Shown in pieces: positions 13 to 48,426 of a DNA stretch of 52,123 nt; positions within the stretch are counted from its first letter, which is position 1; the number at the start of each line of letters is the position of its first letter. The position numbers were made by a program, and so were the translations under genes. The stretch covers positions 1-52,123 of the forward strand of contig JANMAX010000316.1 of NCBI GenBank assembly GCA_031360075.1. The letters are read 5' to 3'. This stretch comes from a bacterium (GTDB lineage Bacteria > Eisenbacteria > RBG-16-71-46). The notes under the pieces are model-generated. The model worked only from the letters and a program-made list of their open reading frames with translations. It made no database searches and was not told the DNA's origin.

Positions 13-57
13 TTGCACCTGACGCGCATTCGGTCGATACTGACGCGTAATGCGTCA
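13..57 (+). promoter_or_regulatory. sigma70-type promoter with overlapping palindromic operator for the MNT-HEPN operon
   Basis: TTGCAC (13-18), 17 bp spacer, GATACT (36-41); ATG follows at 50. Inverted repeat TGACGC-N5-GCGTCA at 41-57 and an extra TGACGC half-site at 20-25. Confidence 0.65.
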
Positions 58-26996: not shown

Positions 26997-27075
26997 GGGC
27001 GACGGACTCGCAATCGTAAGGTGCGCACATGCAGCGTGCCGCACCCGGACAGGTGGTGGAGCGTGAACTTACACC

Positions 27076-28265: not shown

Positions 28266-28351
28266 GATGTCCAATCCGACGAGTCTGCTTTGATAACGTG
28301 CCTCGTGAGCTTCTGATGGTGGTTTGCCAGATTGCCGAGTGTCAATACGCG

Positions 28352-28825
28352 TCACCCCTCGCGACTGTGCCTCGCCTCGTACGCCCGGTACTGCAGCGCC
28401 TCCGCCAGCCTTAGCGCACCCACACGCGGCTCGCCCGCGAGGTCCGCGATGGTGCGCGCCACGCGCATCGCGCGGTGCACGGCGCGCGCACTCATGCCGC
28501 CGCGGTCCACGGCGTCGGCGACCAGTTGGCGGCCGGGCGCGTCCAGCGCACAGTGCTCGCGCAACAGTGGCGCGGGCATCTGCGCATTCAGCCAGCTGCG
28601 CTGCAACTGCACGGCGCGCGCGGCGAGCACACGCGTGCGCACGGCGTCCGACGGCTCGCCGGGGGCGGCGGCCATGAGTTCGTCCGACGTGAGCGGCGTC
28701 ACCTCGATCTGCAGGTCCAGACGATCGAGGATCGGCCCGCTCACCCGTGCCGTGTAGCGCATCAGGTCGCGCGGCCCGCAGCGGCAGCCGCGTTTGGGAT
28801 GTCCGAGCCAGCCGCACGGGCAGCG
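28352..28825 (-). repeat. displaced comM 3' end, copy 1 (474 bp, open frame, no native start)
   Basis: Encodes CPCGWLGHPKRGCRCG...ALQYRAYEARHSREG; the last 136 aa differ from intact ComM at 3 positions. Confidence 0.95.
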
Positions 28826-28830
28826 TTGCG

Positions 28831-29262
28831 TTGCCTTTTACCAGCTTGCGGCTCAACGTCGCCAAACCGCGCGTGTTCCCAAGGGGTTACCCGCAGAATC
28901 CAACGACGCTCGGCGAATACGTCCGACGCCGAAGACTCGATCTCGGGCTCCCGCAACGAATCCTCGCCGAGCGCTGGCGGGTCACCCGCGAGACGGTCGC
29001 CGGATGGGAACTGGGGCGCTGTCAGCCCGCTATCCGGCACTGGCCGCTCGTCCTCGCGTTCCTGGGGGACGACCCCACGCCGACCGGATTCGTCCTTGCC
29101 GACCGCATCCTTGCCCACCGTCGGAGGTTCGGATTGAAGCAAACCGAGCTGGCCGCCCAGCTCGGGATCGATGCTGGAACGGTCCTCGACCTTGAGTCCG
29201 GGCGGAGAACGCCGAGCGCCCGCGTGAGCGCAGTCGTCGAACGGCTGCTCAGGCGCCGGTAG
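28831..29262 (+). CDS. tandem XRE-family helix-turn-helix protein (unit 1)
   Basis: TLGEYVRRRRLDLGLPQRILAERWRVTRETVAGWELG plus a second HTH (GLKQTELAAQLGIDAGTVLDLESG); TTG start inferred from the paralogs. Confidence 0.85.
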   Translation: MPFTSLRLNVAKPRVFPRGYPQNPTTLGEYVRRRRLDLGLPQRILAERWRVTRETVAGWELGRCQPAIRHWPLVLAFLGDDPTPTGFVLADRILAHRRRFGLKQTELAAQLGIDAGTVLDLESGRRTPSARVSAVVERLLRRR

Positions 29263-29299
29263 TCAACACCGCGGCTACCAATGGACCATGCCGGCGAAC

Positions 29300-29395
29300 G
29301 AGATTGGACTTGCGCCAGGGGGGGGGGGGCACATGCCTACTCTCCACGTGCGCGACCCCCTGTCGTGTCCATCACGCAAGCGCGTCCTCGTGAAG
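29300..29395 (+). promoter_or_regulatory. conserved cassette promoter/operator box with G12 tract (unit 1)
   Basis: GAGATTGGACTTGCGCCA-G12-CACATGCC-TACTCT; homologous boxes at 35286 and 42838. Confidence 0.6.
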
Positions 29396-29631
29396 GCATT
29401 CCCGAGGCGCGCGATCTGATTTCATTGAACTCTCGCGGATGTAGAAACCTGGAGTGGCCGCGGCATGCCAATCGCCGTGCACACGCCTCGGTGCTTGGCG
29501 TAACCCTCCGCGGAAGTTCGGTGAGCGCGATGAGCGAAGCGACGCTTGCTGGTTTGGGCCGATGGGCCGCCACACCTCCACCGCAGGCTCCGATGTCGTT
29601 GAACCAGTATCTCGATTGGGGGGATGCACGC

Positions 29632-31761
29632 ATGATCTCACCGGCGCGTCTCAACTCGCATCGTGTTGCCTTGGCAGCTCTCATGCTCCTGTTGCAACTG
29701 GCAGCTCCGCGACAATCGTCGGCCCTCCAACTGCGATGGAGCGGCGGGTCCGCGGCGCTGGACTTCAGCACCAACACGCGAGTGGTGCTCAGGGTCCAGG
29801 CGGATTCCAGCGAGGGAGTACTCCCTGTGTGGTGGAAGCTCATTGGCGTTTCGGATTCCTCGGGCATTCACATCGTCGCACCCGACTCGCTGACGGCCTG
29901 CCAGGTCGACACGGCCAAGGTCTCCTCTGTCGACCCGCCGTCCACGCCGGCGGACAGCGCCGCGAACCAGACGACGGCGCACCTCTGTTCGTCCGAGAGC
30001 ATCCGCGCCACCGTTGCGTTCTACACTATCGACCTCCTTGCAGGGAGCAAGGGGAGGCTCAAGGTCGTGGCCCTGTCCCCGGCCGATCCAGATTCCGTCA
30101 TCGAGTCGAATGAGGTCGTGTACAATGGTGGGGTCGAAGGCAATTTCCCTCCCGCGCTTCTCCGAACGACCAGCAACCACGCAACCGCATCCCTCGAGGT
30201 CACGGCGGTCGGTGCCGGTCTGGCCGACGTCGATTCGGTGACGGTCGGGGCCGCGGATGGACTCTGGAGTGTTCCGTTGGTCGTCCAATCGAAAAGTCCG
30301 AAGCGACTCACCGCGAGCGCTGATGTGCCCGCCAAGCTGCCCAGCGCGGTGGTCAAGGTGGTGAGTCCCTCTGGGATCAGTGTGGAGGATCTGCCGGCCG
30401 ACAACTCGAGCGCGCTCGTCGTTGTCAGCGCGACGTCCGACACCATCCTGTACCGGGACCCGGATCCAGGCGTCTATTGCCACGATTTCGCGTTCTACTA
30501 CAACGCGGTCCCCGACCCGACGAACCCGGCCCATCCTTGGAAGGGCGCGTTCCACCTGTTCTACATCCGGGTCAAGATCGCCAATTCTGCAGACAGCATC
30601 ATCGCCCACGCCTGGTGCGACACGCTCGGCGCACCTTGGAAGGTGGATTTGAACGCCTTCCGCCCAAGTGGCCAGGGCTGGGACGCCGCAAAGGTCTGGG
30701 CGCCGTCGATCCAGCAGATCGGCAACCTGACGTATATGTTCTATACGGGTGTGGATGCGCTGGGGAACCAGAGCATCGGCTACGCCACCACGCCGATGCT
30801 CGGCACCACCAACATCAGTTGGACGCGCAGGACAACGCCGATCTACACGGCGGCCAACGCGGGCTGGGCGGACAAGGTCGGCCACGAAGTCTCGGGAAGA
30901 ACCAGCTTTCGCGATGCCTTCGTCATGCCGGACCCCGACGAGGTGAAATACCCGGGTCGCTACCTCTTGTTCAATGCGGGCGAGGACGGCGTCCTGTTCC
31001 CCCACTACGCGATCGGTGTCGCCAGGAATCGAGCTGGCACGCTGAATCAGTGGGATGATGGTGGCAAGTTCTTCGCGACCGACCATACCCACATGCCATT
31101 CATCACTGGAGCGCTCGAATCGCCACTGATGGTAAGGGACTCGCTCACGGGGGCGTGGCGTATGTTCGTCGCGAACGCGAACTACGATAATTTGGGCCGC
31201 AAGTCGACGTACTTCTTGACCCAAGTGCCCGGGGACAGCGTCACAGACATCGCCGCCTCTGCCTGGCCTGGGCTCGATTCGCTCTACTACTACACCGGCA
31301 ATGATGCGAGCGTGATCGGATGGCAGGCAGCCGAGCATCTCCAGATCGGTCCGGTCCACTTCTTTGCCTCCTACGTCGGACCGACGGGCATCGGCATCAC
31401 TCGGATGCACTGGGATCCGGTGGCGCAGCGGTTCTTCTTCGTGCATCCCACGAATGCAAGTGTGGGCGATCAGCCCGACGGAGGAGACCTACGCTTCTAT
31501 CTAACTGAGTTTCGTCCGCGGGCCGACCTCGTGCGCTTCGTCCTCGAGTCCGCAAACGCGATAATCCCGAAGCTCATGATCTACGATCTCCTGGGACGGC
31601 GAGTCCGCAACCTCAGTGACGGTCGCGCCACGCAGGGGCGCCATGAGTTCGCGTGGGACTGCCGCAAGGACGATGGCGAGCGCGTCTCGGCGGGCATGTA
31701 CTTCGCTCGGCTGACGGGTTCGAACCGGGCCATGGTGGTTCGTGTTCCGATCCTCCGATAG
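29632..31761 (+). CDS. secreted protein with GH32/GH43-like five-bladed beta-propeller and C-terminal FlgD-Ig/T9SS-CTD-like domain
   Basis: Signal peptide; HDFAF, HLFYI, WAPSI, YMFYTG, FRDAFV and LESP clan GH-J/F-like motifs; C-terminal IYDLLGRRVR...WDCRKDDGERVSAGMYFARL. Confidence 0.7.
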   Translation: MISPARLNSHRVALAALMLLLQLAAPRQSSALQLRWSGGSAALDFSTNTRVVLRVQADSSEGVLPVWWKLIGVSDSSGIHIVAPDSLTACQVDTAKVSSVDPPSTPADSAANQTTAHLCSSESIRATVAFYTIDLLAGSKGRLKVVALSPADPDSVIESNEVVYNGGVEGNFPPALLRTTSNHATASLEVTAVGAGLADVDSVTVGAADGLWSVPLVVQSKSPKRLTASADVPAKLPSAVVKVVSPSGISVEDLPADNSSALVVVSATSDTILYRDPDPGVYCHDFAFYYNAVPDPTNPAHPWKGAFHLFYIRVKIANSADSIIAHAWCDTLGAPWKVDLNAFRPSGQGWDAAKVWAPSIQQIGNLTYMFYTGVDALGNQSIGYATTPMLGTTNISWTRRTTPIYTAANAGWADKVGHEVSGRTSFRDAFVMPDPDEVKYPGRYLLFNAGEDGVLFPHYAIGVARNRAGTLNQWDDGGKFFATDHTHMPFITGALESPLMVRDSLTGAWRMFVANANYDNLGRKSTYFLTQVPGDSVTDIAASAWPGLDSLYYYTGNDASVIGWQAAEHLQIGPVHFFASYVGPTGIGITRMHWDPVAQRFFFVHPTNASVGDQPDGGDLRFYLTEFRPRADLVRFVLESANAIIPKLMIYDLLGRRVRNLSDGRATQGRHEFAWDCRKDDGERVSAGMYFARLTGSNRAMVVRVPILR

Positions 31762-31779
31762 GCACGCGATGCACGTGGA

Positions 31780-34314
31780 GTGCGACACATCGACCGGCCG
31801 GGGCTGGCTGTGAGCGGAATGGCTCAGACGGCGCCAGTTGGTCGGAGCAAGGCAAGCCCAGCGACGTACCGCGGCTCGATAGTAATACGGGCACTGTACG
31901 TCTGGCTGGGGCTGGTGGTCGCCGTCCACGGATCCGCGCACGCCCAAGTGGTGGACTCTACGCTATGGTGTCTTAATCCAGGTTCCACGCTGCTCGCCAT
32001 CGGCAAGCTGGGGCATACCCTCTACCTCGGCGGTAGCTTCCGGTACATTGGGCCGTCGACGGGCGGAGGAGTGCCGTGCGACTCTCATTCTGCGGCCCCG
32101 CTCGCGAACTATCCTCGCGTCGTCGGCCGGGTCTACACGGTAGTCGCCGACGGGCAGGGCGGGTGGTACATCGGCGGCCTGTTCTCCTATGTCGGCGGGC
32201 AGCCGCGGGCGAATCTCGCCCACATCCTCGCGGATGGGAGCGTGGCTGCGTGGGCTCCGGATCCGGACCAACAGGTGTCGGCGATCGCACTCGCCGGCGG
32301 GACCGTCTACGTGGGCGGGGATTTCAAGCTCGTCGGGGGCCAGCCGAGGGCACACTTGGCCGCGCTAGGTCCATCGAGCAGCAGGCCCTTGCCCTGGACG
32401 TGCGATGCGAACGACCGCGTGATGTCACTCGCGGCAAGCGGGTCGACGCTGTACGTGGGCGGATGGTTCACGGTCCTCGCGGGTCAGCCGCGTGCGCGCG
32501 TCGCCGCGGTGGACTTGGCCAGCGGAGTGCCCACGCCGTGGGCGGTGAATCTCGACGATCGCGTCAGCGCGCTGGCGATGCACGACACGACCCTGTTCAT
32601 CGGCGGTTACTTCTGGACCGCAAACGCCGATACGCATCGTTGCATCGTCGCAGTCGGGGCTTCCACCGGCGCGGTGCACGCGTGGAATGCGCTCGTCGAC
32701 CGCCAACCGCCCTCCTCGTTGGATTTCGGCCCGCACGTCAACGCCATGCTATTCAGTGGGGAGTCATTGTTCGTCGCCGGGTCATTCACGCATATCGGTC
32801 GTCAAGCTCGCCAATCGCTGGCGCAGATAGACGTTGCGAGCGGGCGAGCGACGGATTGGAATGCGCGCCCATTCCGCGACACGAGGCTGGGGCCGGAGTT
32901 CTTCTCGCTCGCGTGCTCGGGGGACACGCTCTTCGTCGCGGGGCCATGCGATTCGATTGGCGGCGAGCCATGTGGGCAGGCGTCGGCGCTCAACTCGCGG
33001 AACGCAACCAAGCTGGAATGGGACCCACTGACCAACGATTTCGTGTTCGCGCTGAGCTTGCAGGGTGGTGTCATCTACGTCGGGGGTTGGTTCACGTCGG
33101 TGCGCGACTGGGTGCTCCGCCCCGGCCTCGCCGCGATCGATGAGCAGACGGGACGAGTCACCGATTGGGACCCTCATCCCGACGACTACGTGAGGAGCCT
33201 TCTCGTTCACGGCGGCAAGATCTACGTTGGCGGCTATTTCGGGTCGGTGGGCGGCCAGTTCCGTTCGGGAATCGCTGCGTTGGATCCCGTGACCGGCGAA
33301 GCCACGTCGTGGAACCCGAGTGCAGATGGAGCAGTTTGGTCCATGGCTCCGATGGGCGACGCGGTGATCGCCGCGGGGCTATTCAGGCGAATCGGTGGCC
33401 GTTTCCTAACCGGCCTCGCTGCAATCGATACCTCGACCGGCCGTGCGACATTGTGGACTCCCGATGCAGGAGGCGACGTACACTGCCTGGCTGTCAGTGA
33501 CACGGCGATCTATGTCGGGGGGGACTTTCTCGTCATGGGCGGCAAGCCTCGTGGATCACTCGCCGCCGTCGATCCGTTGACCGGCGCGGCTACCCCCTGG
33601 AACCCCCCGACCGACGGAATCGTGAATGCGATTGCCCTGCTTGACGGAACCATCTATGTCGGAGGCTTGTTCAACACAGTAGGTGGGCTTCCACGCAATT
33701 TCCTCGCCGCCGTCGATCGAGCCGGCTCCGTGTTGCCGTGGGACCCTGATGCCTTCGGCCCAAATGGGGACGGTCGCGTTCGAGCCCTTGTCGCCAAGGA
33801 CAGCACCCTCTTCGCAGGCGGATTCTTCTCCGGGGTGTCGGGGGAGTCCCGCGAGTACTTCGCGGCGCTGGACGCCAAGACGGGCGCTGTGCGACACGAA
33901 TACCCGCACCCCGACGGACCGGTATGGGCGCTTGCCGAGAGCGGCGGCAGTATCTACGTGGGGGGGGCGTTCGGGCGTATGGGACAGTGGCCCCAGGTGG
34001 CACTAGCGGCGATCCGGCCGAGTGGCGCGCTACCGCCGCCTGTCTCGATTCGCCTCCTGCTTGCGCAGAGCGCCCCGAACCCCGCGACCAGCTCCACGGT
34101 AGTGCGGTACTCACTGCCAGCCGGCGCGCCGGTAAGCCTCACCCTGTTTGACTTGCAGGGCCGTCGAAGCGCAAGGGTTCTATCGGACGTATTCCAATCC
34201 GCCGGCCCGCATCAGGTCAGCGTTCGCACCGATGGTCTACGGGCGGGATGCTACCTCTACTGTCTAGAAGCTGGTTCGCTCAGAGCAACGAGGAAGATGG
34301 TGATCGTGAGATAA
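31780..34314 (+). CDS. secreted beta-propeller repeat protein with C-terminal sorting-like domain
   Basis: About 14 repeats of a (L/I/V)YxGGxF..GG..R..LA blade; C-terminal PNP...LFDLQGR...AGCYLYCL; start codon uncertain. Confidence 0.8.
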   Translation: MRHIDRPGLAVSGMAQTAPVGRSKASPATYRGSIVIRALYVWLGLVVAVHGSAHAQVVDSTLWCLNPGSTLLAIGKLGHTLYLGGSFRYIGPSTGGGVPCDSHSAAPLANYPRVVGRVYTVVADGQGGWYIGGLFSYVGGQPRANLAHILADGSVAAWAPDPDQQVSAIALAGGTVYVGGDFKLVGGQPRAHLAALGPSSSRPLPWTCDANDRVMSLAASGSTLYVGGWFTVLAGQPRARVAAVDLASGVPTPWAVNLDDRVSALAMHDTTLFIGGYFWTANADTHRCIVAVGASTGAVHAWNALVDRQPPSSLDFGPHVNAMLFSGESLFVAGSFTHIGRQARQSLAQIDVASGRATDWNARPFRDTRLGPEFFSLACSGDTLFVAGPCDSIGGEPCGQASALNSRNATKLEWDPLTNDFVFALSLQGGVIYVGGWFTSVRDWVLRPGLAAIDEQTGRVTDWDPHPDDYVRSLLVHGGKIYVGGYFGSVGGQFRSGIAALDPVTGEATSWNPSADGAVWSMAPMGDAVIAAGLFRRIGGRFLTGLAAIDTSTGRATLWTPDAGGDVHCLAVSDTAIYVGGDFLVMGGKPRGSLAAVDPLTGAATPWNPPTDGIVNAIALLDGTIYVGGLFNTVGGLPRNFLAAVDRAGSVLPWDPDAFGPNGDGRVRALVAKDSTLFAGGFFSGVSGESREYFAALDAKTGAVRHEYPHPDGPVWALAESGGSIYVGGAFGRMGQWPQVALAAIRPSGALPPPVSIRLLLAQSAPNPATSSTVVRYSLPAGAPVSLTLFDLQGRRSARVLSDVFQSAGPHQVSVRTDGLRAGCYLYCLEAGSLRATRKMVIVR

Positions 34315-34337
34315 GTGTGCACGTGCCCGGAGGCTAT

Positions 34338-34811
34338 TCATACTTCGCCGCTGTGTCTCGCCTCATACGCCCGATACTGCAGCGCCTCGGCGAGCCGCAG
34401 CGCTCCGACGTGCTGTTCCCCGCACAGGTCCGCGATCGTCCGCGCCACGCGCAGCGCACGGTGAACGGCGCGCGCGCTCATGCCGCCGCGGTCGACGGCG
34501 TCGGCGACCAGTTCTCGCCCTGCTGCATCCAGTGCGCAGTGCTCGCGCAGCAATGGCGCCGGCATCTGCGAGTTGAGCCAGCCGCGAGCGCGTTGTAGTC
34601 CACGGGCAGCGAGCACCCGCGAGCGCACATTTGAGGAGCACTCGCCCGGCGCCGCCGCCATCAGCTCATCCGAAGTGAGCGCCATCACTTCGATCTGGAG
34701 ATCCAACCGATCTAAGATCGGCCCCGACACGCGCGCCGCGTAGCGCGCCAGGTCACGCGGTCCGCACTTGCACCCGCGCTTCGGGTGGCCCAGCCAGCCA
34801 CACGGACAGGG
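34338..34811 (-). repeat. displaced comM 3' end, copy 2 (474 bp, most divergent)
   Basis: PCPCGWLGHPKRGCKCG...ALQYRAYEARHSGEV; open frame; same breakpoint as the other copies. Confidence 0.95.
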
Positions 34812-34816
34812 TTGCG

Positions 34817-35272
34817 TTGCCTTTCTGCAATCTCCGCCTCGCTGGACGAAGAGCGCCTGCGTTGCCAAGAGGTTACCCGACTTCGCTCGTCACGCTTGGC
34901 GACCACATCCGCCGCCGTCGGCTCGACCTGGGCCTATCGCAACGAACCCTGGCAGGCCGCTGGCGGGTCACCCGCGAGACCGTCGCTGGGTGGGAACTCG
35001 GTCGGTACGAGCCCTCGATTCGCCACGGGCCACTCGTGATTGCCTTCCTGGGTATGGACCCAACTGCCACCCGAAGCGCGATCCCCGAAGGGCTCAGGTC
35101 CGTCCGCCGCCGGTTCGGTCTCACCCAGGGCGAAATGGCGGTTCGGCTCCGGCTCGACGCCGGGACCGTCGCCGATCTCGAAGCCGGGCGGCGGTCCCCA
35201 AGTGCGCGAGTCAGGAGCGCCGTCGTGCGCCTGTTGGAGCAGGCCCTGCAAGATCCGAGTGTACCGAAGTAG
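34817..35272 (+). CDS. tandem XRE-family helix-turn-helix protein (unit 2)
   Basis: TLGDHIRRRRLDLGLSQRTLAGRWRVTRETVAGWELG plus a second HTH; paralog of 28831 and 42369. Confidence 0.85.
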   Translation: MPFCNLRLAGRRAPALPRGYPTSLVTLGDHIRRRRLDLGLSQRTLAGRWRVTRETVAGWELGRYEPSIRHGPLVIAFLGMDPTATRSAIPEGLRSVRRRFGLTQGEMAVRLRLDAGTVADLEAGRRSPSARVRSAVVRLLEQALQDPSVPK

Positions 35273-35285
35273 CTCGCCGAGTATC

Positions 35286-35365
35286 GAGGTTGGACTTGCG
35301 CCAAGGAGGGCGGCCCCGGTTGCGCCTGCCACCCCTCCGTCGTGACCCAATGAGTCTCGCGTGAC
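35286..35365 (+). promoter_or_regulatory. degenerate cassette promoter/operator box (unit 2)
   Basis: GAGGTTGGACTTGCGCCAAGGAGGG; no poly-G tract and no TACTCT. Confidence 0.5.
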
Positions 35366-35708
35366 CGAGTCCAGCTCAAGCATGCGGGCGCTTCACGTTG
35401 GACGCCGGAACGAGCCGCATTCAGGGGTGGCCTCATGGCCACGCCTCAGGGGAGCGACTTCGCGAGCCGCAGCTTCGTGGTTTGCGCCCGTGCCCAGGAG
35501 GCCGCCATGGGCGGCGAGCCGAAGCTCCTGGAGGAGCACATGGGCCCCCGTGAGATTGACCGTCCGGCTCCCCACATACCGTTGCCGGTAGAGCCTCCTG
35601 GGTCGCCAGTGGCCGACTGCGCACAAGGGACCACTGCGCGCCTCTGAGCGAATCAAGGACAATCGATTTCTGAGAAGGGATGATTGAAGAGGACGGGAGG
35701 TCACGTGC

Positions 35709-36557
35709 ATGTTGCGACTCTTGAGGGTGATGACTTGCTCGGTGTGTTTGATGGCCTTCGTCCCATGCGTACAGGCTGGGAACAACGCGGGTGCATCGGT
35801 CGAGTTGGCGTGGGACGCGAATGCCTTGCGGTCCTCGCCATCGGGCTTCCCCCTCTGTCTCGCCGTGTATGACGCGCCCGATCTTCGGCAGCTCGTGATC
35901 CACGTGAGTTGGACTCCGTACGATCCGGGAGGGGATTGTTTCCGCTTGAAGCCGGCGGGAAAAGCAGTCGCGTGCGACAGCCTCCGGGCGCTGCCGGTTG
36001 GCACGAGCCTCGAGGACTCAAGCTACGTCTGGACCGTGCTCTTCGCTTCCGCGCCAGCTTCACCCCAGCACCTGATCTACTGGATCACCGGGACGAGCTG
36101 CGACTCGACGGCGTCCCCGCGGTTCCTGGTGACCGACGTCCGGGCGCTGGATTCCTCGGGAGCGAGCGACACTCTTACTTCTCGCGGCTGCGTGATTCTG
36201 AATAGCGCCATGGCGTTTGGGGCCGCCGACGTCACTCAGTCGATATCACCCATGCCGTCGGGTGAGATGGGTGAGGCACTTCCCACTCGCCTCGCTCTCT
36301 TCGCGAACCCAAATCCCCTGGTCGAAGCGGCGACGATCAGATTCGACCTGCCCGGACCAATCTCCTGCCACCTCGCGATCTATGACGTGAGCGGAGCTCT
36401 CGTGCTGGACGCGAGTCCCGTCGTGCGCGCACAGCGCGGCAGCTTCCGCTGGGACCTGACCCGCAGGGATGGCGAACGGGTCCACCCAGGAGTGTACTTC
36501 GCACGCCTCACCAGCTCGGCTGGCTCTCGCGTGGTGCCGCTGACGGTGCTCAAGTGA
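35709..36557 (+). CDS. secreted protein: GNNAG N-terminal module fused to a C-terminal sorting-like domain
   Basis: Signal peptide; N-domain homologous to the 43003 protein; PNP...IYDVSG...WDLTRRDGERVHPGVYFARL. Confidence 0.8.
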   Translation: MLRLLRVMTCSVCLMAFVPCVQAGNNAGASVELAWDANALRSSPSGFPLCLAVYDAPDLRQLVIHVSWTPYDPGGDCFRLKPAGKAVACDSLRALPVGTSLEDSSYVWTVLFASAPASPQHLIYWITGTSCDSTASPRFLVTDVRALDSSGASDTLTSRGCVILNSAMAFGAADVTQSISPMPSGEMGEALPTRLALFANPNPLVEAATIRFDLPGPISCHLAIYDVSGALVLDASPVVRAQRGSFRWDLTRRDGERVHPGVYFARLTSSAGSRVVPLTVLK

Positions 36558-36685
36558 ACCGCGCGAACCTTGTACACGAGTCCCCGCCGCGCAAAGCTCT
36601 CGCCACGCGATGGCGCGTTTCGCGAGCGCCTTCCGGTCATGGCTTGTCGGCGACGCCACTTCTGCGACCTGCTCAGGAGTCTGCC

Positions 36686-38710
36686 GTGTTCATCCGATTC
36701 CTGTCGCTGGTCGGGCTGGTCGTTTGCCTTAACGCGGCCATTGCCTGGGCGCAAGCACCATTCGCCCCACACGCTTCGGGCGACAAGGTCACCAGGTACC
36801 CGCAGGCTGAGGGGACCTACCCCTACCCGTCCAGGCCCCAGTATCTGATTCCGACCTCGGTGGAGACCGGAGCGGGCGCGACCACTTGGAACGCGGTCCT
36901 CACCCGGATCACCGGCGATGCGGGCGCATCCATCACCCACTTGAGCCCGTCCGTCTGGGGAAAGGACGGGCGGCACCAGTACTCAAGCCGCTCTTCATGG
37001 AACGCCACCGGCTCGCTCCTCTACATCGAGAATGGCATGTGCAACGACTGCGTGGCAGCGGTGGATGGTGTACACTGCCCGAAGACGTCCGGTGGGTTCA
37101 ACGGCTACAACGGCCCCGCAGAGCCGAAGAAGCTGTTTCTGGACGGGAACACGTACATCCCCCAGAACATCGGCCAGTTCACCGCGATCACTGACGCCAA
37201 AGAGTTGGTGTGGCACCCGTCGACCTCACGGGCGGACTACATGATCGTCGTAAGGGACTCGCTCGGGTCGCCGGAGGACGCTGCCCACAATCGCTCTCTG
37301 CTGCAGTGGGTGAACGTCTGGAATGGCGCTATCGCGCGCACCTGGACGCTCCCGTTTCAAGTGGCGGGCATCGGACCCGGCGAAGGCGCCCCCAGCAACG
37401 ACGGCCGATTCATCACCCTCCTCAACGTCGCCGGAGATAACGTGGTCCTGGTTGACATGGACCCGTCGATACCGGACCCGTATCCTAGGCGGCGAATCAG
37501 TGCTGCATCACCGTTGCCGCAGCCGTGTGGGCTGTCTTGTCCAACGAGCTGCAATGTTGGCCACGTGACGGTGTCGAGCAAGGGTACATTCCTCGACGTG
37601 GCGTATGGCAATGACATTCACCGCATCTTCGACATCGACTGGAAGCTGACTGAACAATCTGCCATGCCAGCTCTGGGATCCCCGCACACGATGCACGTGG
37701 CACCTCCGTCGTGTTACGACGGTGCGCTGGCACTCGACGCGAACGGCTGGATCATGCCTCTTAAGCACGCCGACCATCTGACTTACGGAGACGAGGAGTA
37801 CATCGTTGGCTTCGACGATTGCCGCGTTTTTGGTTCCTGTGAATTCCCGGGCGGCTTGGAACCTTTCGCCGAGGACTCGGGCCGCGTTGTCGTGGTGAAG
37901 CTGACCCCTGGTTCACTCCTTCAAGACGGATCGGTGCGGCACGTAAGCGCGGGCCGCCTTGAAGTGGGCTCAAGGGAGCGGTCGGGTGCCCACGTTTCCG
38001 CACGCAATGTGAGCGGGCAGACCTCCTGGGTCTTCGCGAGCTACGACAAGACACCGGGTGATTTGCCAACCGGAAACACGCGGATGATGGGTGAAGTCGT
38101 GGCCTGGAGCCTGGACAGGAGCGCGACCGTCCCCAAGGCGGTCAAGCGCTTCACCTGGAGTCACAGTGCCTGGTCGAGCGCTCTCGGCTACGAGTGTTAC
38201 CGCGCCGAGATGCACCCCAGCCCGTCGCCGGATGGCCGGCGCATCCTGTTCGCGTCGAACTGGCGGCGCTGGACGCAGGGCGTAAGCGACTACGCTCCGA
38301 ACGATTGGCGGAAAGCCTACGTCATCGACACCCGGCCCACGCCGGCAGCGGTCAGCGGCCTGACCGCTGAGTCCACGCAGGGGTGTGCGATCACGCTCCG
38401 ATGGACGGCTCCGAAGGACGACATGCTGGACCCCGCATCGGGGCAAGTCGCTGGGTACGATATCCGGTACAATACGACAGGCGAGATCACGCCCGAAAGC
38501 TTCTACGATCAGGCATTTGTAGTGCCACCGTCGCCGCTCGCGCCCGGTTCACTCCAGACCCTGGTGGTGAGCGGGCTAGATGACACCCAGACCTACTACT
38601 TCGCTGTGAGGTCGATCGGGACCAACGGCCCGCGCTCGACGATCGTGGGCCCGGTAACGGCGACTCCAGGACCGCCCCCGCCGCACAACCCGCCGTTCTT
38701 CTGCGGATGA
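36686..38710 (+). CDS. secreted TolB/oligogalacturonate-lyase-like beta-propeller protein with C-terminal Fn3 domain
   Basis: GTG start after AGGAG; signal peptide; HQYSSRSSWNATG and HPSPSPDGRRILFASNW motifs; Fn3 motif LRWTAP...SGLDDTQTYYFAVRS. Confidence 0.7.
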   Translation: MFIRFLSLVGLVVCLNAAIAWAQAPFAPHASGDKVTRYPQAEGTYPYPSRPQYLIPTSVETGAGATTWNAVLTRITGDAGASITHLSPSVWGKDGRHQYSSRSSWNATGSLLYIENGMCNDCVAAVDGVHCPKTSGGFNGYNGPAEPKKLFLDGNTYIPQNIGQFTAITDAKELVWHPSTSRADYMIVVRDSLGSPEDAAHNRSLLQWVNVWNGAIARTWTLPFQVAGIGPGEGAPSNDGRFITLLNVAGDNVVLVDMDPSIPDPYPRRRISAASPLPQPCGLSCPTSCNVGHVTVSSKGTFLDVAYGNDIHRIFDIDWKLTEQSAMPALGSPHTMHVAPPSCYDGALALDANGWIMPLKHADHLTYGDEEYIVGFDDCRVFGSCEFPGGLEPFAEDSGRVVVVKLTPGSLLQDGSVRHVSAGRLEVGSRERSGAHVSARNVSGQTSWVFASYDKTPGDLPTGNTRMMGEVVAWSLDRSATVPKAVKRFTWSHSAWSSALGYECYRAEMHPSPSPDGRRILFASNWRRWTQGVSDYAPNDWRKAYVIDTRPTPAAVSGLTAESTQGCAITLRWTAPKDDMLDPASGQVAGYDIRYNTTGEITPESFYDQAFVVPPSPLAPGSLQTLVVSGLDDTQTYYFAVRSIGTNGPRSTIVGPVTATPGPPPPHNPPFFCG

Positions 38711-38795
38711 GAAGACTGCACTCGAACGGTGGGCTCGAACGTCGCAGAGCCTGGCGCGAGCCACTTTCCGGATCTGATCCGGATCGAGGCACTCC

Positions 38796-41700
38796 ATGAA
38801 CTCACCCCGCCGGATGTCGAGTTCCAGGTGGTCGTGGCTGGCCGTGGCCATGACATCGTGCGCGCTCGTGAGTTCGACGCGCTCACTCGCCGAGTGCGAG
38901 CCGGGCTTTGAGCTCCATCCCGAGTACTACACGTTCAGCGTGGGCGCCAAGCCGGTGTCCGTGGCGACTGGAGACTGGAACGAGGACGGCCGACCCGACG
39001 TCGTGACCGCGAACGCGGATGGCCGTTCGCTCACGTTGCTGTTCGGTGCGGGCGGCTTTCACCTCCGGCCCGGAGGCGAGATCCCGATGGGGGCGGCCGC
39101 CTACTGGGTGGAGCCCAAGGACATGAACGCCGACGGGCATCTCGACCTGGTCGCCACCGGGGACTTCGGCACTGTCGTACTGGTGGGTGACGGCCGGGGA
39201 GGATTCCGGACCGGCGCTACCTACCCCTATGCCGGTACGTTCCTGGCGCTTGGAGATCTCAACCGGGACGGCTCGTGCGACATCGCGCTGGCGTCCAGGA
39301 CGGCCAAGCTCGACGTGACGTTCCTGTTCCTCAAAGGGCTGGATGTAGACCACGTGCATACGTTGCCCTATCCAGTGGATGCGATCCATCTCGGGGACTT
39401 CAACGAGGACGGGGCTCTGGACATGGCCGTTGTTGGATGTGGGGGCTACATCTGGCTGAACCCTGGCGACGGAACCTTCAGCCCATCATGGACCTTCTAC
39501 CCGTATCACTGCTGCACCAAGTGGGGGGCAGTCGGCGATATCAACGGCGACGGTCACGTCGATATCGTGGGAGTGGAAAGCTACCCGGGCTGCGGTGGCG
39601 TCCTGCTCGGCCGCGGAGATGGAACCTTTCAAGACCCGTATGGCGGGCTCGCCGCCGAGTTGCCCTCGGGTCCGGAGGAGCCGCGACCGCCAGCCGTCGC
39701 GCGCCGCCAAGTGCCCAGCGGCGAAACGAGGCACGAGCCGTGGATGCCACCCCTGCTCAGCGGCGCATCCTGGCAGGTTCAGGACTCGGGCGGCGAGCCC
39801 CTGCCGGAGCGTCCGGCGAGTGTTCCCAGTGCGTTGTGGCCGACCAACGAACCGGGCGCCGGCCCCGATCTCCTGCTGGACGCGGTTCACTATGGACCGC
39901 ACTGGGTCATGCTCGCGGATCTCGATGGGGACGGCCGGGACGACTGGGTCACACTGAGCAATCAGCCGGGAGAAGAAGTCCTGTACCGGCGCTCGGTGTC
40001 CTACCCGACGGCGGCGGTGGTGGTCGACATCGACGGCGACGGTCGCCTGGACGTGGTGGCCGCGGGACGCCAGTACTGGGGCGCTGGACCGATCGATGGG
40101 GCGGTGGCGGTGCATCCGGGGGACGAGCACGACATCATCCGCCGCAACCCGAGCGTGTACATGAGTGACCGGCCGGTGATGGCAGAGCTGGTCGACTTCA
40201 ACCGGGATGGGATCGCGGACATCGCCTCCATGGGAGACGACGGCCTGCAGATCGTTGTCAGGCAGGCCGACGGGAGCCTCGGTCCGATCCTGGGCGCGCC
40301 GGGCTACTACGGCTTTGGGCACGCGTTCGTCGACATCAACGGTGACGGGAACCTCGACGTGCTGGACGGAGATCCCATGCTGTATCTCGGCAATGGGGAT
40401 GGGACGTTCGACTGGGAGATGCCGATCCAGTACTTCGACAGTCGTCTGAGCGGATTCGACGCGGGGGATGTGGATGGGGACGGCAAAGTGGACGTGGTCG
40501 GGATCCGCTGGTACAGCGTGCCCGGCAACCGGCCGGAGGGCCCCGCACTGCTCCTGCGTGGGAACGGCGACGGGACGTTCCGCCCCGCGACCGAGCTGGG
40601 GATAACCGCCGCCCAGGTGAGGCTCAAGGACCTGGACGGCGACGGCCACCTGGACATGGTCGTCGCCAGGGAGAACGGAGGCATGTCGGTGTACTGGGGC
40701 AGCGGCGATGGGACATTCACGATGGGCCCGGTGCTCGAGAGCTCCGGGACGATCTACTCGCTGCTCTATGGAGACATCGATGGGGACGGGCGGCTCGACC
40801 TGTTCGCCAACCCGGAAGCCCGAGAAGTCGTCTACCGCAGTCTGGGAGGGCGGAGTTATCAGCGCCTGGCACTGAATCTGCGAGTCTACCCGACATTCCC
40901 GGCCCTGGGGGATATCAACGGCGACGGCAAGGATGATCTCATTGACTACGGCATCCAGGCATTCCACGTCTACTTGAGCAATGGTGACGGCAGTTTCCGA
41001 GGGCCACTCGAGGATTCGTATGGACCGGGCGGGCTCGTCCTCGTGGACCGGGCGAGCCGGAGCCCGCAGCAGCTCTTCGCGCTCACTCGGAACAACGAGT
41101 ACTACTTCACCAAGGTCACACTGGTCGAGAACGAGCAGAGGCCCAACCGGGGGCCGATCACGGGCAACGCCCGCGCGGTGGTGACGGGCCCGGGGGCTCG
41201 GAATCACGGTTGGGCGGACATCTCGATCGCGGGCGTGAGCGATCCCGAAGGTGACGCAGTGAGCATCGCGGTGACGGGGATCACGCAGGACGAACCGGTG
41301 GGGAGCGGGTTCATGGGCGGTCCGCACGGGACCGCGGGCTCCGGCGGGCCTCACTGTCCGGATGCTCTCATCGTGGGCGGGCAGGCGCGGGTGCGTTGGG
41401 AGCGTGCGGGCTCCGGAAACGGCCGCATGTACAGGGTGGACTTCATCGCGACGGACGGCTGTGGCGGAACAAGTCCCGGCCAGGTAAACGTGTGCGTGCC
41501 GCACGATGCCGCGTCGCTGACATGCGTGGACGATGGTCAGCGCTACAACTCGCTCGGATGTGAGGTGGGCGGTCCCGCAGCGCTGGCGGTGTCGGCGGCG
41601 GATGGCCTGTACGCGCCGCAGGTGCACGCCGGAGGCGCGGAACTCCACTATTCGCTGGCACAGTCGGCCGAGGTGCGACTCGAGATCTTCGACCTCTTGG

Positions 41701-41849
41701 GCCGAAGGCGCGCGGTGCTGACGGGCGGACTTCAGCCGCCGGGTGAGCACCGGGCGCGCTGGGATGCCGTGGGGGCCGCGGGGGTGTACTTCGCGCGGCT
41801 CTCGATCCGGGGGCAGAGCTTCGTCCAGCGCTTCGCGCTTCTCCCTTGA
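38796..41849 (+). CDS. secreted FG-GAP/VCBS repeat protein with C-terminal sorting-like domain
   Basis: 13 DxxxDGxxD repeats; signal peptide; C-terminal IFDLLGRR...AGVYFARL. Confidence 0.88.
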   Translation: MNSPRRMSSSRWSWLAVAMTSCALVSSTRSLAECEPGFELHPEYYTFSVGAKPVSVATGDWNEDGRPDVVTANADGRSLTLLFGAGGFHLRPGGEIPMGAAAYWVEPKDMNADGHLDLVATGDFGTVVLVGDGRGGFRTGATYPYAGTFLALGDLNRDGSCDIALASRTAKLDVTFLFLKGLDVDHVHTLPYPVDAIHLGDFNEDGALDMAVVGCGGYIWLNPGDGTFSPSWTFYPYHCCTKWGAVGDINGDGHVDIVGVESYPGCGGVLLGRGDGTFQDPYGGLAAELPSGPEEPRPPAVARRQVPSGETRHEPWMPPLLSGASWQVQDSGGEPLPERPASVPSALWPTNEPGAGPDLLLDAVHYGPHWVMLADLDGDGRDDWVTLSNQPGEEVLYRRSVSYPTAAVVVDIDGDGRLDVVAAGRQYWGAGPIDGAVAVHPGDEHDIIRRNPSVYMSDRPVMAELVDFNRDGIADIASMGDDGLQIVVRQADGSLGPILGAPGYYGFGHAFVDINGDGNLDVLDGDPMLYLGNGDGTFDWEMPIQYFDSRLSGFDAGDVDGDGKVDVVGIRWYSVPGNRPEGPALLLRGNGDGTFRPATELGITAAQVRLKDLDGDGHLDMVVARENGGMSVYWGSGDGTFTMGPVLESSGTIYSLLYGDIDGDGRLDLFANPEAREVVYRSLGGRSYQRLALNLRVYPTFPALGDINGDGKDDLIDYGIQAFHVYLSNGDGSFRGPLEDSYGPGGLVLVDRASRSPQQLFALTRNNEYYFTKVTLVENEQRPNRGPITGNARAVVTGPGARNHGWADISIAGVSDPEGDAVSIAVTGITQDEPVGSGFMGGPHGTAGSGGPHCPDALIVGGQARVRWERAGSGNGRMYRVDFIATDGCGGTSPGQVNVCVPHDAASLTCVDDGQRYNSLGCEVGGPAALAVSAADGLYAPQVHAGGAELHYSLAQSAEVRLEIFDLLGRRRAVLTGGLQPPGEHRARWDAVGAAGVYFARLSIRGQSFVQRFALLP

Positions 41850-41889
41850 TTCGGGAGCACGAGGCGGGGAATCAGCGCGGGCAGGGCAT

Positions 41890-42363
41890 TCATGCTTCGG
41901 AAGCGTGCCGTGCCTCGTACGCCCGGTACTGCAGCGCCTCCGCCAGTCGTAGCGCGCCCACCCGCGGCTCGCCCGCCAGGTCCGCGATCGTGCGCGCCAC
42001 GCGCATCGCGCGGTGCACGGCGCGCGCGCTCATGCCGCCGCGGTCCACAGCGTCGGCGACCAGTTGGCGTCCGGGCGCGTCGAGTGCGCAGTGCTCGCGC
42101 AGCAGGGGTGCTGGCATCTGCGCGTTCAGCCAGCCGCGCTGCAACTGCACGGCGCGCGCGGCGAGCACGCGCGTGCGAACGGCATCAGACGGCTCGCCGG
42201 GAGCCGACGCCATCAGCTCTTCTGAAGTCAGCGGCGTGACCTCGATCTGCAGGTCGAGCCGGTCGAGGATCGGTCCCGAGACACGCGCCGTGTAGCGCAT
42301 CAGGTCGCGCGGGCCGCAGCGGCAGCCGCGCTTGGGATGCCCGAGCCAGCCGCACGGGCACCG
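41890..42363 (-). repeat. displaced comM 3' end, copy 3 (474 bp)
   Basis: CPCGWLGHPKRGCRCG...ALQYRAYEARHASEA; open frame; same breakpoint as the other copies. Confidence 0.95.
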
Positions 42364-42368
42364 TTGCG

Positions 42369-42815
42369 TTGCCTTTTACCAGCCTGCGGCTCAAGGCGCC
42401 CAGACCCTCCGTGTTCCCAAGGGGTTACCCGAAGAATCCGGTGACACTCGGTGAACAGCTCCGTCGTCGAAGGCTCGATCTCAGCCTGCCGCAACGAATC
42501 CTCGCCGAGCGCTGGCGGGTCACCCGCGAGACGGTCGCCGGATGGGAGCTGGGACGCTGTCAGCCCTCGATCCGGCACCGGCCGCTCGTCGTGGAGTTCC
42601 TGGGGCTCGACCCGACGCCGACCGCGGCCACGCTCGGCGGCCGACTTCGGGCCTACCGACGCAAGCATGGACTGACGCAGGCGGAGCTCGGTGTCAGGGT
42701 GGGCATCAATGAGGGGACCATCCTCGATATCGAAGCGAATCGGCGAAAGACCAGCGCCCGCGTCGTGGCGCTCATTGAGGGCTTGCTGGCGCGGGGCCGG
42801 GCTCCAAACCGGTGA
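42369..42815 (+). CDS. tandem XRE-family helix-turn-helix protein (unit 3)
   Basis: TLGEQLRRRRLDLSLPQRILAERWRVTRETVAGWELG plus a second HTH (GLTQAELGVRVGINEGTILDIEAN). Confidence 0.85.
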   Translation: MPFTSLRLKAPRPSVFPRGYPKNPVTLGEQLRRRRLDLSLPQRILAERWRVTRETVAGWELGRCQPSIRHRPLVVEFLGLDPTPTAATLGGRLRAYRRKHGLTQAELGVRVGINEGTILDIEANRRKTSARVVALIEGLLARGRAPNR

Positions 42816-42837
42816 CCAAAGGATAACTTCGAAGAAT

Positions 42838-42930
42838 GAGATTGGACTTGCGCCAGGGGGGGGGGGAGGCGCCTACTCTGCCCCTTGCGCTCCCCCGTCG
42901 CGCACCAGTGCGATCATGCGTGCTCGACCT
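42838..42930 (+). promoter_or_regulatory. conserved cassette promoter/operator box with G11 tract (unit 3)
   Basis: GAGATTGGACTTGCGCCA-G11-AGGCGCC-TACTCT. Confidence 0.6.
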
Positions 42931-43002
42931 GTCCTTTCCGATGAGCACGAGCGCATTGCATTGAACCTCGTACCTCGCGGCAGCTCTCAGTGGGATAGTC
43001 GA

Positions 43003-46000
43003 ATGACGGATCAGATTCGTCGACTTGCGATCATCGCGTTGGGCTCGCTGCTCCTCGCCGCTTCTGCGACAACGAGTTCGGCAGGCAATAACGCAGGGGG
43101 AACAGCGCGATTGAGTTGGGACGAGGCCGGCGTGGTGCTGAATATTGCATCTCCTCCTTCCGACTCGTTCCCCCTGTTTCTTTCCCTGTCCGGAGCACCA
43201 AACGTACGCGCCCTCGCCGCCGTGGTTCAGTGGTTTCCCACCGACCCGACGGGTGCGTGCTACGGCTTGCTCCCGGCCTCGCCAGGGGGGACTTGCGGCA
43301 GCACGAGCGAAATGCCGACGACTGGCGAGTTCCACGGAGAGCCGACCAACGAGTGGTGGAGCATTTCATTCCCGCCAGGCAGCACCGCACGGCACTGCGT
43401 CTCCTGGATCGTGACTGCCGCCGGCTGCCCGATTCTTCCACCCGCGATCTTTACGGCACAGGTTCGTATCGAGGACTCGAATGGCGATGTCGACACCCTC
43501 GCGGTGCAGCTACCGGCCACGATCGGATCGTCTCAGGCTGCCTCGTTGGAGGCGACCGCCATCTCCCCCGCGATTGTGGTGCCGGCCACGGAAACCATGT
43601 TGCGAGTCCGTGGATCGGGATTTCTTCCCGGGTCGCACGTGTCGCTTAGCAACTCCACGAGCCGCGTGGAGGCCAGTCGCGTCATCGTGCTTTCCCCTGA
43701 TGAGATTGCCGCAACCGTGGCGCCCGGCCAGTCGGCGACTCCATACGATCTGACCGTCTCGATGGCAGACGGACGCTCTTCGGTTTCACCGCAGGACGTG
43801 GCGACTGCTCCCGCATTGGCATTGTCGATTTCCAGCCAGTTGCCGCGCCCAACCAACGCCGCCGGAGCGATTCGCACGCTCGCCCTCTGGGCCGATCAAA
43901 GCGCTACAGTGAACGTTGCGCATATTGGATTACCTCTCCCTTCAGCTTTGACCACCGACTCGCTGCTGATTCCACGCCCCGCCGGAGGCGACACGATGGC
44001 CGTGCTCAGGAGCACGCCGAGCGATTGCATCGAGTTCAACGCCGGTGTCGCGTGTTGTCCCAGCTATGTCGAGTACAACATCTCGCCGCCTCAGTACGCC
44101 ACATCGATTGGCCTGCTGCAGATGGGCAAGGGGGTCCTCAGGGGCACGGGGGCATTCGACGACAACAACCTTCCTATCGTCTCGGTCAGAACACGATTCG
44201 CAGACGGTGATTCGGTCGTCGATACGCTTCGCGTCGGGCGGCAGGTGCGCAATTCCAAGGACGGCTCGCTCTCATGCCCGATCGCCGGGCCCATTCCGTA
44301 CTTCGTGCTTCAGCCCGACGATCCGCTGAATGCCCAGTTGTACGCTAGCGGTGGGGCGTTCTACGACGCGCAAGAGGTGCAACTGCCGCCGAGCAAGCGC
44401 TCCAAGCTCGTTAGTGCGATACGCATCAGTGAGCTTGCCATCGTGCACAACAATTGTGCTCCGTCTGGTTTCACCGGGTGCCAGAGCTACCTGAGCGGGA
44501 TCGGCCTGTGGCCTTCATTCGAAGTCAGAAACCGTCATGGTGGCAGCCTTGGGCTTCAGACTCAGTTCGCGACAGCCTACGCGGGCTTGCCGTATGGAGG
44601 GTACATCGTGCGCGACACCCTGTTCGGGGCGCACAACACTATCCGGGCCCTGGGTTGCATGCTGAGCTGCATGGCGATGGCTAACTCGTTCCTGGGCGAC
44701 ACCGTTACCGTCTTGGGGCTGAACAAGTACCTAGCGCTGCACGATGGATTCGAGCCTACAACTCTTGTCACGCTCAACCAGGTGAACGGCCAGAGCCTCG
44801 GGTCGACGGTGACCTGGACGGTTAGGCCCGGCGTGAAGTTGTCTGTCGGCGATACGGTGCTCTTCGAATCGCCTGGGACTCAGCGTCGAAGTCCCCTCGT
44901 GACGTTGGTGACCGGTCCGACAACCTCGCAGGCTACGATTGTTCTCAGGCACCGCTCGGGCCTCTTGACAGGCAACATGACGGGCGTCGGGTATGGACTC
45001 GTCAACACAGATGTGGCCGCCGAGGCGTACTCCAAGAGTAGTGGGCATCCTTGGCACCTGGTCAGGCTCATCGGGACGAGTCCGGCAATCCCGCCGCTCG
45101 TGGAGACCGCCCTGGTGGATTCGCTTCCTGTGCTGTTGGAGGAGCCGCACCACTACGTCCTTGCGCGCGGCTGGCGACCCAGTTTTGGCGGCAACTTTGC
45201 GAATGGCACCTACGTCCTGAACGACCCGGGCCATGATGGCGTGACTCGACTTAACCAGAATTTCGTGGTGGGCGGAACTCCTACGAGTTTCGGAAACACG
45301 TTCTTGGCGGCGAGATCGTGCGTCCCGCTGGAAGCGAACCACTACAACTCGACGGCGGTCGGCGGTGGGGCTGTCAGCTTCGTTCTCCAGGGGGGCGGCC
45401 GGCTCAGCATTACTGATTCCTCGGGTCGCGGATTGGACTTCTACGACACGCTCGGCGGATACGACGGCAATCTCCCGGGCGCGAATGCCTGGCCGGACTA
45501 TGGGGCCGGTCTGGACGATGGCCTGGCCGCTGAGGCGCCAGTTGAGTACGTTGAGCTTGCAGGTGCCGCCGGCGGCGACTACCGAGTGCAGGTCGTCGCC
45601 AAGGGCTCTGCTTCCTTTGGGCTGGGTGCCTCAACCCTCGATGCCGATGGCAACTGCGCCCGAGCGTACGCAGAGTATCCGCTGAGCACCGGCGAAGCAG
45701 TGACGTTCAGCGTGCACGTCGTGCAAGGCGCATCGTCCAGCGTGCGAATCGACACATTGACGACTGCTGGTGTCGGGGGCGGAACTCAGCAACTCCCAAC
45801 CGCGCTGACGGTACGACCGAACCCAAGCCGCGGTAAGGTGGAGTTGGTGGCTGACATGGCGGTTCAGGGAAACGTAACGATCGAACTGTTTGACATCGCT
45901 GGAAGGCTTGTTGCTGTACCTCTCAATGGTCCAGTTGCTGCAGGACGACAGGTCATCCACTGGGACGCCGAAACTGGGGGAAGCGTGAGCGGACGAGCAG

Positions 46001-48254: not shown

Positions 48255-48426
48255 GGTGGTTCCGTGTGCGGGGGCAGGGACCATTGCGCGCGGGCGGCCA
48301 TGGCAGGCACGACGCGGGGGTGGACGGCCCCGGCGAATCGGGCGGCCCATGCGGGGCGACTGCACGCCGGGCCACGCAAGTTCCATGCAATGCCCAACCC
48401 GTTGCGGCTAAGGTATCGCGTCCAGT

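Follow-up and report, generated by a model that had tools for sequence, protein, structure and literature searches.

We analysed a 52,123-base metagenomic contig (JANMAX010000316.1, here called the window) from an Eisenbacteria assembly (GCA_031360075.1) of a soil-type, uncultured bacterium, in which three tandem cassettes, units 1 to 3, form an island next to the gene comM. Each cassette combines a copy of the 3' end of comM, a gene for a protein with two helix-turn-helix (HTH) domains, and cargo genes for secreted proteins. Between the HTH gene and the cargo of units 1 and 3 lie uninterrupted runs of 12 and 11 G residues, placed at homologous positions between conserved boxes, one of which (TACTCT) resembles a −10 element. 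Our preferred interpretation, to which we assign a probability of roughly 40%, is that the tract is a slippage-prone promoter spacer that tunes or switches cargo transcription. If real, this would be a switch of a well-known kind, in an unusual host and setting.

The two tracts are rare features. Six homopolymers of at least 7 bases occur in the window, namely three G7 and one G8 (these four at 12702, 16751, 33517 and 33960) and the two tracts themselves, in line with the initial annotation, which had placed G12 and G11 at homologous sites and called them the longest homopolymers. The window has a G+C content of 68%, but counts of G/C runs still fall by a factor of ~0.24 with each extra base. 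Two G/C runs of at least 11 were observed, compared with 0.035 expected under a first-order Markov model and 0.0135 from an extrapolation of the observed length distribution. Both expectations are analytic estimates, and because the tracts sit in paralogous modules, they are not independent events. Still, passive inheritance of a pure 11-12-nt run in both leaders is unlikely, because the leaders of units 1 and 3 are 65% identical outside the tract (104/161 aligned columns; a naive 0.65^12 = 0.005). No other notable microsatellite appeared among the 46 TRF rows of the window.

We also counted runs in related cassettes. Scanning genome contigs with a search seeded by an alignment of the HTH proteins, not by a DNA motif, returned 39 loci, of which the closest are in metagenome-assembled genomes (MAGs) of Candidatus Eisenbacteria (L001, L002, and L004). 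Across ~121 kb made up of the window and L001-L004, G/C runs numbered 143 at length 5, 25 at length 6, 9 at length 7 and 1 at length 8; there were none of 9-10, and the only longer ones measured 11, 11 and 12. Each of these three is located in intergenic sequence 5' of cassette cargo genes. Open reading frames (ORFs) do run through the window tracts (29281..31761 and 42691..46068), which made coding sequence a candidate. We rejected it, because the signal peptides begin at 29632 and 43003, and because unit 1 and L001 share ~50% identity, with indels, between tract and start codon.

The leader that follows the HTH stop codon is non-coding, 187-436 nt long, and holds box, tract and TACTCT. In unit 1, TTGCGC is followed by CA, the 12 G residues, CACATGCC and TACTCT, leaving 22 bp between the two hexamers; in unit 3 the order is TTGCGC (42848-42853), CA, the 11 G residues, AGGCGCC and TACTCT, leaving 20 bp. 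Both gaps match those first reported for this DNA. Unit 2 was likewise described correctly as having an interrupted tract and no TACTCT, as it carries the same 14-nt TTGGACTTGCGCCA followed by AAGGAGGGCGG (together 35290-35313), and a scan of 35210-35712 found no TACTCT. In the leaders of unit 1 and L001, TACTCT is the sole hexamer of the form TAnnnT. The stretch scanned in unit 3 contains one further such hexamer (TAACTT at 42824), just past the stop codon of the regulator gene, and none other after the box.

Upstream of the tract, the better-conserved box reads GAGATTGGAC in units 1 and 3, GATTTGAC in L001 and GAGATTGACC at a second site in unit 2. Its hexamer is TTGGAC in units 1 and 3 and TTGACT in L001, which makes this TTGAC-like box a better-conserved candidate for the −35 element than TTGCGC. 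Measured from it, the spacers to TACTCT are 28 bp in unit 1, 26 bp in unit 3, and 22 bp in L001. On the other side, a block at 29330-29388 begins at the 3' edge of the tract and is 87% identical between unit 1 and L001, compared with 60% before it and 48-57% after it. Given this local peak in identity, the non-coding block is under constraint. The second site in unit 2, where TTGACC and TACCGT are separated by 15 nt, is a candidate tract-free promoter for the unit 2 cargo.

Candidate promoters elsewhere in the window give some indication of what this host uses. Only three sites of the form TTGnnn-16..18-TAnnnT occur on either strand of the window, and two of them stand where promoters are expected. 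One is TTGACC-17-TACTTT (1253-1281), a canonical-looking site outside the island and upstream of an SMC gene; the other is TTGACA-18-TAAGTT (23152-23181, minus strand), at the annotated start of a subtilase gene whose true start is probably further downstream. There is no other TTGACx-17/18-TAnnnT outside the island. Because these two sites sit at expected promoter places, the organism appears to use canonical hexamers, and TACTCT, TTGACT of L001 and TTGACC of unit 2 fit them; TACTCT resembles the −10 element (TACTTT) of the SMC-upstream site. Bacteroidota-type promoters consist of TTTG at −33 and TAnnTTTG at −7. We found no TAnnTTTG in the leaders and one in the window (43199-43206, minus strand), compared with 1.71 expected. 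Sigma-54 and extracytoplasmic function (ECF) sigma factor spacings were also considered and, as judged by eye, did not seem to fit at the box. We searched for tRNA genes from which to derive native promoters, and there were none in the window or in L001-L004.

Evidence that the tract accounts for most of the length variation between box and TACTCT came from L001, the counterpart of unit 1, whose cargo proteins share 72% and 81% amino acid identity with those of unit 1 and are followed by a full-length comM. The homologous site in L001 reads GATTTGACT, GGGGG, CA, G7, CACGCGCC and TACTCT. Tract lengths at the homologous sites are therefore 12 in unit 1, 11 in its paralogue unit 3, and 7 in the orthologue L001. 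Between box and TACTCT the distance varies among the three (35, 33, and 30 nt), whereas that from TACTCT to a second ATTGRAC box is nearly constant (86, 86, and 88 nt), indicating that the tract is the main length variable. The initial annotation had anticipated that contraction to G7 or G8 would produce a 17-bp ON spacer. L001 shows this distance: with its G7, TACTCT stands exactly 17 bp from the counterpart of TTGCGC, but the hexamer at that position is TGGGGG.

We propose that the G tract would act as a slippage-prone spacer inside a sigma-70-type promoter carried on the backbone of the comM cassette. This promoter would lie downstream of the double-HTH regulator gene that each cassette carries and upstream of the genes for its secreted cargo, with the tract separating the TTG box (GAGATTGGAC-TTGCGCC) from the −10-like TACTCT. 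If the boxes do form a promoter, gain or loss of G residues during replication would change the distance between them and turn cargo transcription down, off or on in a heritable and reversible way. Tract length would then be expected to vary within the population and to control expression. At the assembled spacers (22 and 20 bp from TTGCGC, or 28 and 26 bp from TTGGAC), units 1 and 3 are predicted to be low or OFF, and unit 2, with its interrupted tract and its tract-free TTGACC-15-TACCGT, may be a locked variant. Secreted and surface proteins are the usual class of phase-variable genes. The cargo proteins carry signal peptides and C-terminal domains of the type IX secretion system (T9SS) kind (FlgD_ig or Por_Secre_tail), as befits secreted or surface proteins.

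Several observations weigh against a spacer switch. The window itself has no spacer near 17 bp; measured from the best-conserved box, the spacers of the three homologues exceed that length by 5-11 bp, so that an ON state would be many slippage steps away. L001 does not share TTGCGC, and a consensus sigma-70 scan found nothing at the tract sites (28300-43200 gave 1 match, at 37629, vs. 1.6 expected). Of the original idea of a TTGCGC...TACTCT promoter, the placement of the tract between a TTG hexamer and TACTCT is supported, the choice of hexamer is not. Tract lengths were read from an assembled metagenomic contig and so are consensus values, and the homologous leaders compared number four. The tract is also not a general feature of the cassette family, because a homopolymer of at least 9 within 400 nt downstream was found at only 2 of 27 HTH gene copies, both in the window. 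These 27 copies comprise three in the window and 24 in the 19 loci with an N-terminally matching HTH gene.

The third long run, in L002, also provides less than full support. This 11-nt run (15484-15494) is found ~150 nt ahead of the start codon (ATG) of a gene homologous to the unit 1 cargo (37-40% identity), in the interval that separates this gene from a comM fragment. It is G on the plus strand of the locus, but it is poly-C on the cargo coding strand, and the leader around it has no TAnnnT and no significant similarity to the window leaders beyond the run itself. L002 thus speaks for a link between long G/C tracts and the 5' regions of this cargo, but not for the specific promoter architecture. 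In L002 the cargo operon is inverted relative to the HTH gene, and the comM fragment immediately precedes it.

The alternative that best withstands these data, although we still consider it rather doubtful, is that the tract is an idle hypermutable run. Slippage would have expanded a G-rich stretch of leader sequence that is under weak constraint in these horizontally acquired cassettes, and the stretch would not serve as a switch; its length would reflect drift, with cargo expression set by the HTH protein or by read-through. This could explain why the spacers are far from any optimum and why the tract is lineage-specific, being present after 2 of 27 HTH copies. It is likewise consistent with the composition of the island, where G+C (0.61-0.68 across 27000-46700, compared with 0.70-0.73 in the flanks) and G+C at third codon positions (GC3) are both lower, as after recent acquisition and under relaxed selection. 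Unit 2 and the L003 copy, in which an insertion sequence (IS) follows the HTH gene, show decay of the leader region. However, an idle run would not be expected to stay pure over 11-12 nt in two leaders that are 65% identical elsewhere, or to recur upstream of homologous cargo in L002. Nor does it account for the absence of runs of 9-10 elsewhere in the 121 kb, or for an adjoining block that is more conserved than much coding sequence.

It is unlikely that the tract serves instead to phase operators, setting the distance and helical phase between sites for the double-HTH protein (ATTGGAC-type boxes) and the −10 element, as at nadA with NadR or at the Bordetella fim genes. Boxes of the ATTGRAC type do occur on both sides of the tract at a fixed distance from TACTCT, and there is an adjacent regulator gene in every case. 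The window has 10 RTTGRACY matches, every one of them in the island (compared with 5.45 expected; 10 was reached in 5 of 100 shuffles), and GAGATTGRNC has 4 matches compared with 0.66 expected (3 of 100 shuffles reach 4). Moreover, the 28- and 26-bp spacers exceed 17 by about one helical turn, and nadA is a precedent (PMC2791445). Yet, the boxes are short, the motif enrichment is modest, and the 22-bp spacing of L001 is half a turn off. TTGCGYYR was not enriched as a repeated operator half-site (12 matches vs. 22 expected).

We find it improbable that the tract works as RNA. Here, it would be the 5' arm of a leader hairpin, paired with a C5 run ~26-30 nt downstream and enclosing TACTCT, in a transcript that starts upstream and is shared with the HTH gene. 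Pairing is possible in every leader (CAGGGGG/CCCCCTG in unit 1 and L001, GGGGGAG/CTCCCCC in unit 3, and GGAGGG/CCCTCC in unit 2), and a terminator scan found none after the HTH gene. RNAalifold predicts the helix, with 2/12 pairs changed on both sides and one compensatory-looking change (n = 1) in unit 2, and the helix is present in 3/4 single-sequence minimum free energy (MFE) folds. By contrast, the fold energies were no better than those of shuffled sequences (z = −0.23, 0.02, −1.35, and +0.72), the covariation term was just −0.62 kcal/mol, and Rfam 15 returned 0 matches at E <=1 over 26000-48500 on both strands. Moreover, only 5-7 of the 11-12 G residues would pair, and the L002 tract is poly-C with no nearby G run.

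That the tract marks a recombination or cassette boundary where cargo is exchanged is hardly credible: it does lie near the switch from conserved backbone to variable cargo, but similarity between units extends ~100-120 nt beyond it, to the second box, and the boundary of comM homology is ~490 bp upstream, at the HTH start. Least plausible of all is a sequencing or assembly artefact, for instance poly-G from two-colour chemistry, because although homopolymer lengths in an assembled metagenomic contig may be off by at least 1 base, both tracts are internal, have unique conserved sequence on either side, occupy homologous sites in two diverged paralogues, and are matched by a G7 at the same site in an independent MAG (L001).

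The features of the island are listed below, beginning with the leader elements.

Table 1. Leader elements, cassette genes and comM copies in the window (nucleotide positions in the 52,123-base stretch).
Feature	Position	Strand	Remarks
G12 tract, unit 1 leader	29318..29329	+	56 nt past HTH gene stop codon
G11 tract, unit 3 leader	42856..42866	+	41 nt past HTH gene stop codon
G-rich interrupted counterpart AAGGAGGGCGG, unit 2	35303..35313	+	
Conserved box GAGATTGGACTTGCGCCA, unit 1	29300..29317	+	Two TTG hexamers, TTGGAC 29304-29309 and TTGCGC 29310-29315; L001 counterpart GATTTGACTGGGGGCA
Conserved box GAGGTTGGACTTGCGCCA, unit 2	35286..35303	+	
Conserved box, unit 3	42838..42855	+	
TACTCT, −10-like, unit 1	29338..29343	+	GCCTACTCT also present in L001
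TACTCT, −10-like, unit 3	42874..42879	+	
Most conserved non-coding block, unit 1 leader	29330..29388	+	87% identity to L001
Second ATTGAAC box, unit 1	29424..29430	+	86 nt past TACTCT; counterparts 42960-42966, 35397-35403, L001:7357
Second box GAGATTGACC, unit 2 (TTGACC, 15 nt, TACCGT)	35552..35582	+	127 nt before cargo ATG
comM/yifB, full-length (Mg_chelatase family)	46743..48386	-	3' 487 bp = fourth repeat copy
comM 3' fragment before unit 1	28352..28838	-	Further copies 34338-34824, 41890-42376
Double-HTH (XRE-type) gene, unit 1	28831..29262	+	Counterparts 34817-35272, 42369-42815
Unit 1 cargo	29632..34314	+	29632-31761 (secreted, FlgD_ig C-terminal domain); 31780-34314 (secreted beta-propeller, Por_Secre_tail)
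Unit 2 cargo	35709..41849	+	Three proteins: FlgD_ig/Por_Secre_tail; fn3/PD40; FG-GAP repeats
Unit 3 cargo	43003..46613	+	1021-aa TIG/Por_Secre_tail protein and 182-aa protein

The comM-derived repeats define the cassettes. The copies of the ~487 bp at the 3' end of comM share 77-91% identity, and their homology ends at the PCPCGW codons, exactly where the double-HTH gene begins on the opposite strand. That gene encodes a protein of ~145-150 aa with two XRE-type HTH domains. The HTH/comM junction is TGCGTTGCCTTT-like and encodes the HTH N-terminus MPFTSLRL (28826-28850, 34812-34836, and 42364-42388 in the window). It is kept at the DNA level across distant lineages, as seen at the upstream ends of the HTH matches in L002-L020, and it could represent a recombination core, instead of or besides coding sequence.

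The array opens on its left side with what is left of a fourth unit (~27076-28351), a remnant that consists of a C-terminal part like that of the 1021-aa protein of unit 3 and a 232-aa protein like that of 46065..46613. It shares 71-84% DNA identity and has no HTH gene or leader, which suggests that a deletion at this end of the array produced it. In every cassette, the signal peptide of the first cargo protein is directly followed by a similar L-x-L-x-W stretch (e.g., ALQLRWSGG, ARLSWDEAG; window 29632-29780, 35709-35860, and 43003-43150; L001:7564; L002:15332). This hints that first cargo proteins, which otherwise differ, have a common N-terminal module.

Beyond the window, the double-HTH protein is rare, with nine clusters in a set of 5.8 billion proteins and no match in plasmid and phage collections. 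A tblastn search showed that a comM fragment starting from residue ~388-392 directly abuts the HTH gene in 10/19 loci (L001, L004, L009-L015, and L020). These comM-fragment cassettes occur in very different lineages, and several of the loci hold two or three copies. In total, at least 10 lineages carry the cassette, including Eisenbacteria, Planctomycetota, Cyanobacteriota, Chlorobiaceae, Armatimonadota, Rhodothermales, Terriglobales, Gemmatimonadales, Opitutus and the window. Two further loci deserve mention. At L003:9253-10447, an IS3-family-like insertion (an rve-like reverse ORF, with terminal inverted repeats read by eye) right after the HTH stop stands in place of the leader region; the cargo further downstream is truncated. 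In L019, from a Phycisphaerales MAG, a G10 tract (10184-10193) was rejected as a further example, as it lies inside a coding region (IGGGAE) of an unrelated LexA/CI-like HTH-S24 peptidase repressor; a frameshift there would truncate that repressor.

No integrase, recombinase or transposase Pfam family was detected in 36 ORFs of the window, and none in 40 ORFs of L009, L010, L011, and L020 apart from an IS21 IstB fragment in L009, both scans covering ORFs above ~90-100 aa. We found no description of a comM-associated cassette family in the literature searched, a search of low power in which the term comM also matches unrelated words, and nothing relevant in the Eisenbacteria literature searched. 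A comM cassette family without a recombinase is more novel than the switch itself. It is tempting to join the two and regard the G tracts as built-in stochastic switches of previously undescribed, recombinase-less cassettes (comM 3' copy, double-HTH regulator and variable cargo) that stack in tandem, but we would call this broader view a doubtful one.

Should it be true, each cassette of the Eisenbacteria branch would hold a dedicated regulator and a contingency tract, and a cell lineage would randomly display different subsets of the surface proteins it has acquired. Such a switch could account for the way in which cassette arrays can be kept while only subpopulations express them, and it would be the first example of a simple-sequence contingency system from an environmental phylum that is uncultured and high in GC. 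To our knowledge, nearly all documented cases of phase variation driven by homopolymers come from host-adapted pathogens. If such a switch worked in a free-living, uncultured lineage of 68% G+C, it would show that contingency loci are a general bacterial strategy. The case would be all the more telling for a tract built into the backbone of surface-protein cassettes that were acquired horizontally. In practice, the tracts mark a site where lengths taken from assemblies are unreliable and where the read pile-ups of metagenomes could show switching directly.

As mobile-looking units, the cassettes can be compared with integrative islands that bring along a copy of their target gene's 3' end, and with integron cassette arrays. 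They are alike in that tandem units each start with a copy of the comM 3' end, one intact gene is left, cargo is variable, and units accumulate in an array. They differ from integrase-encoding integrative elements in that no site-specific recombinase of their own was found in the window ORFs scanned.

As putative switches, the tracts resemble several known systems to different degrees. In Bordetella pertussis, fim2 and fim3 have a long poly-C tract between the site of the activator BvgA and the −10 element. They resemble our leaders in the long C/G homopolymer between an activator site and a −10 element (both putative in our case), and differ in having BvgA as the activator and a pathogen as the host. 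At nadA, a repeat tract is flanked by operators of the dedicated regulator NadR, and its length alters operator spacing (PMC2791445). That tract is a TAAA tetranucleotide repeat upstream of the core promoter, whereas here it is a G homopolymer and the operators are only putative. Expression level is also set by a homopolymer in Neisseria meningitidis, by poly-G between the −35 and −10 elements of porA and by poly-C over the −35 element of opc, as summarised elsewhere (PMC7864442). The porA tracts stay within 1-2 nt of the optimum, whereas the spacers described here are 3-11 bp too long, with the −35 element uncertain. More broadly, upstream simple-sequence repeats serve as predictors of phase-variable genes (PMC5084427).

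The closest parallel is Treponema pallidum (PMC7864442). Its tprE/G/J, tprL and tp0126 genes have poly-G tracts of ~7-12 within or just upstream of surface-protein promoters, and these vary in length in vivo. Transcription is permitted by short tracts (<=8) only, or by an optimum that gives 17 bp between −35 and −10, and the genes have long leaders and ORFs mis-annotated across the tract. The Eisenbacteria cassettes share the range of poly-G lengths, the placement in what is here a putative promoter, the surface genes, the long leaders and the ORF calls that run through the tract. Length heterogeneity, transcription start sites and reporter dependence were measured in T. pallidum, whereas the present case is a prediction from sequence. 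The two also differ in setting, as the tract described here belongs to a high-GC, uncultured environmental lineage and sits in the backbone of a mobile-looking cassette that brings its own regulator gene.

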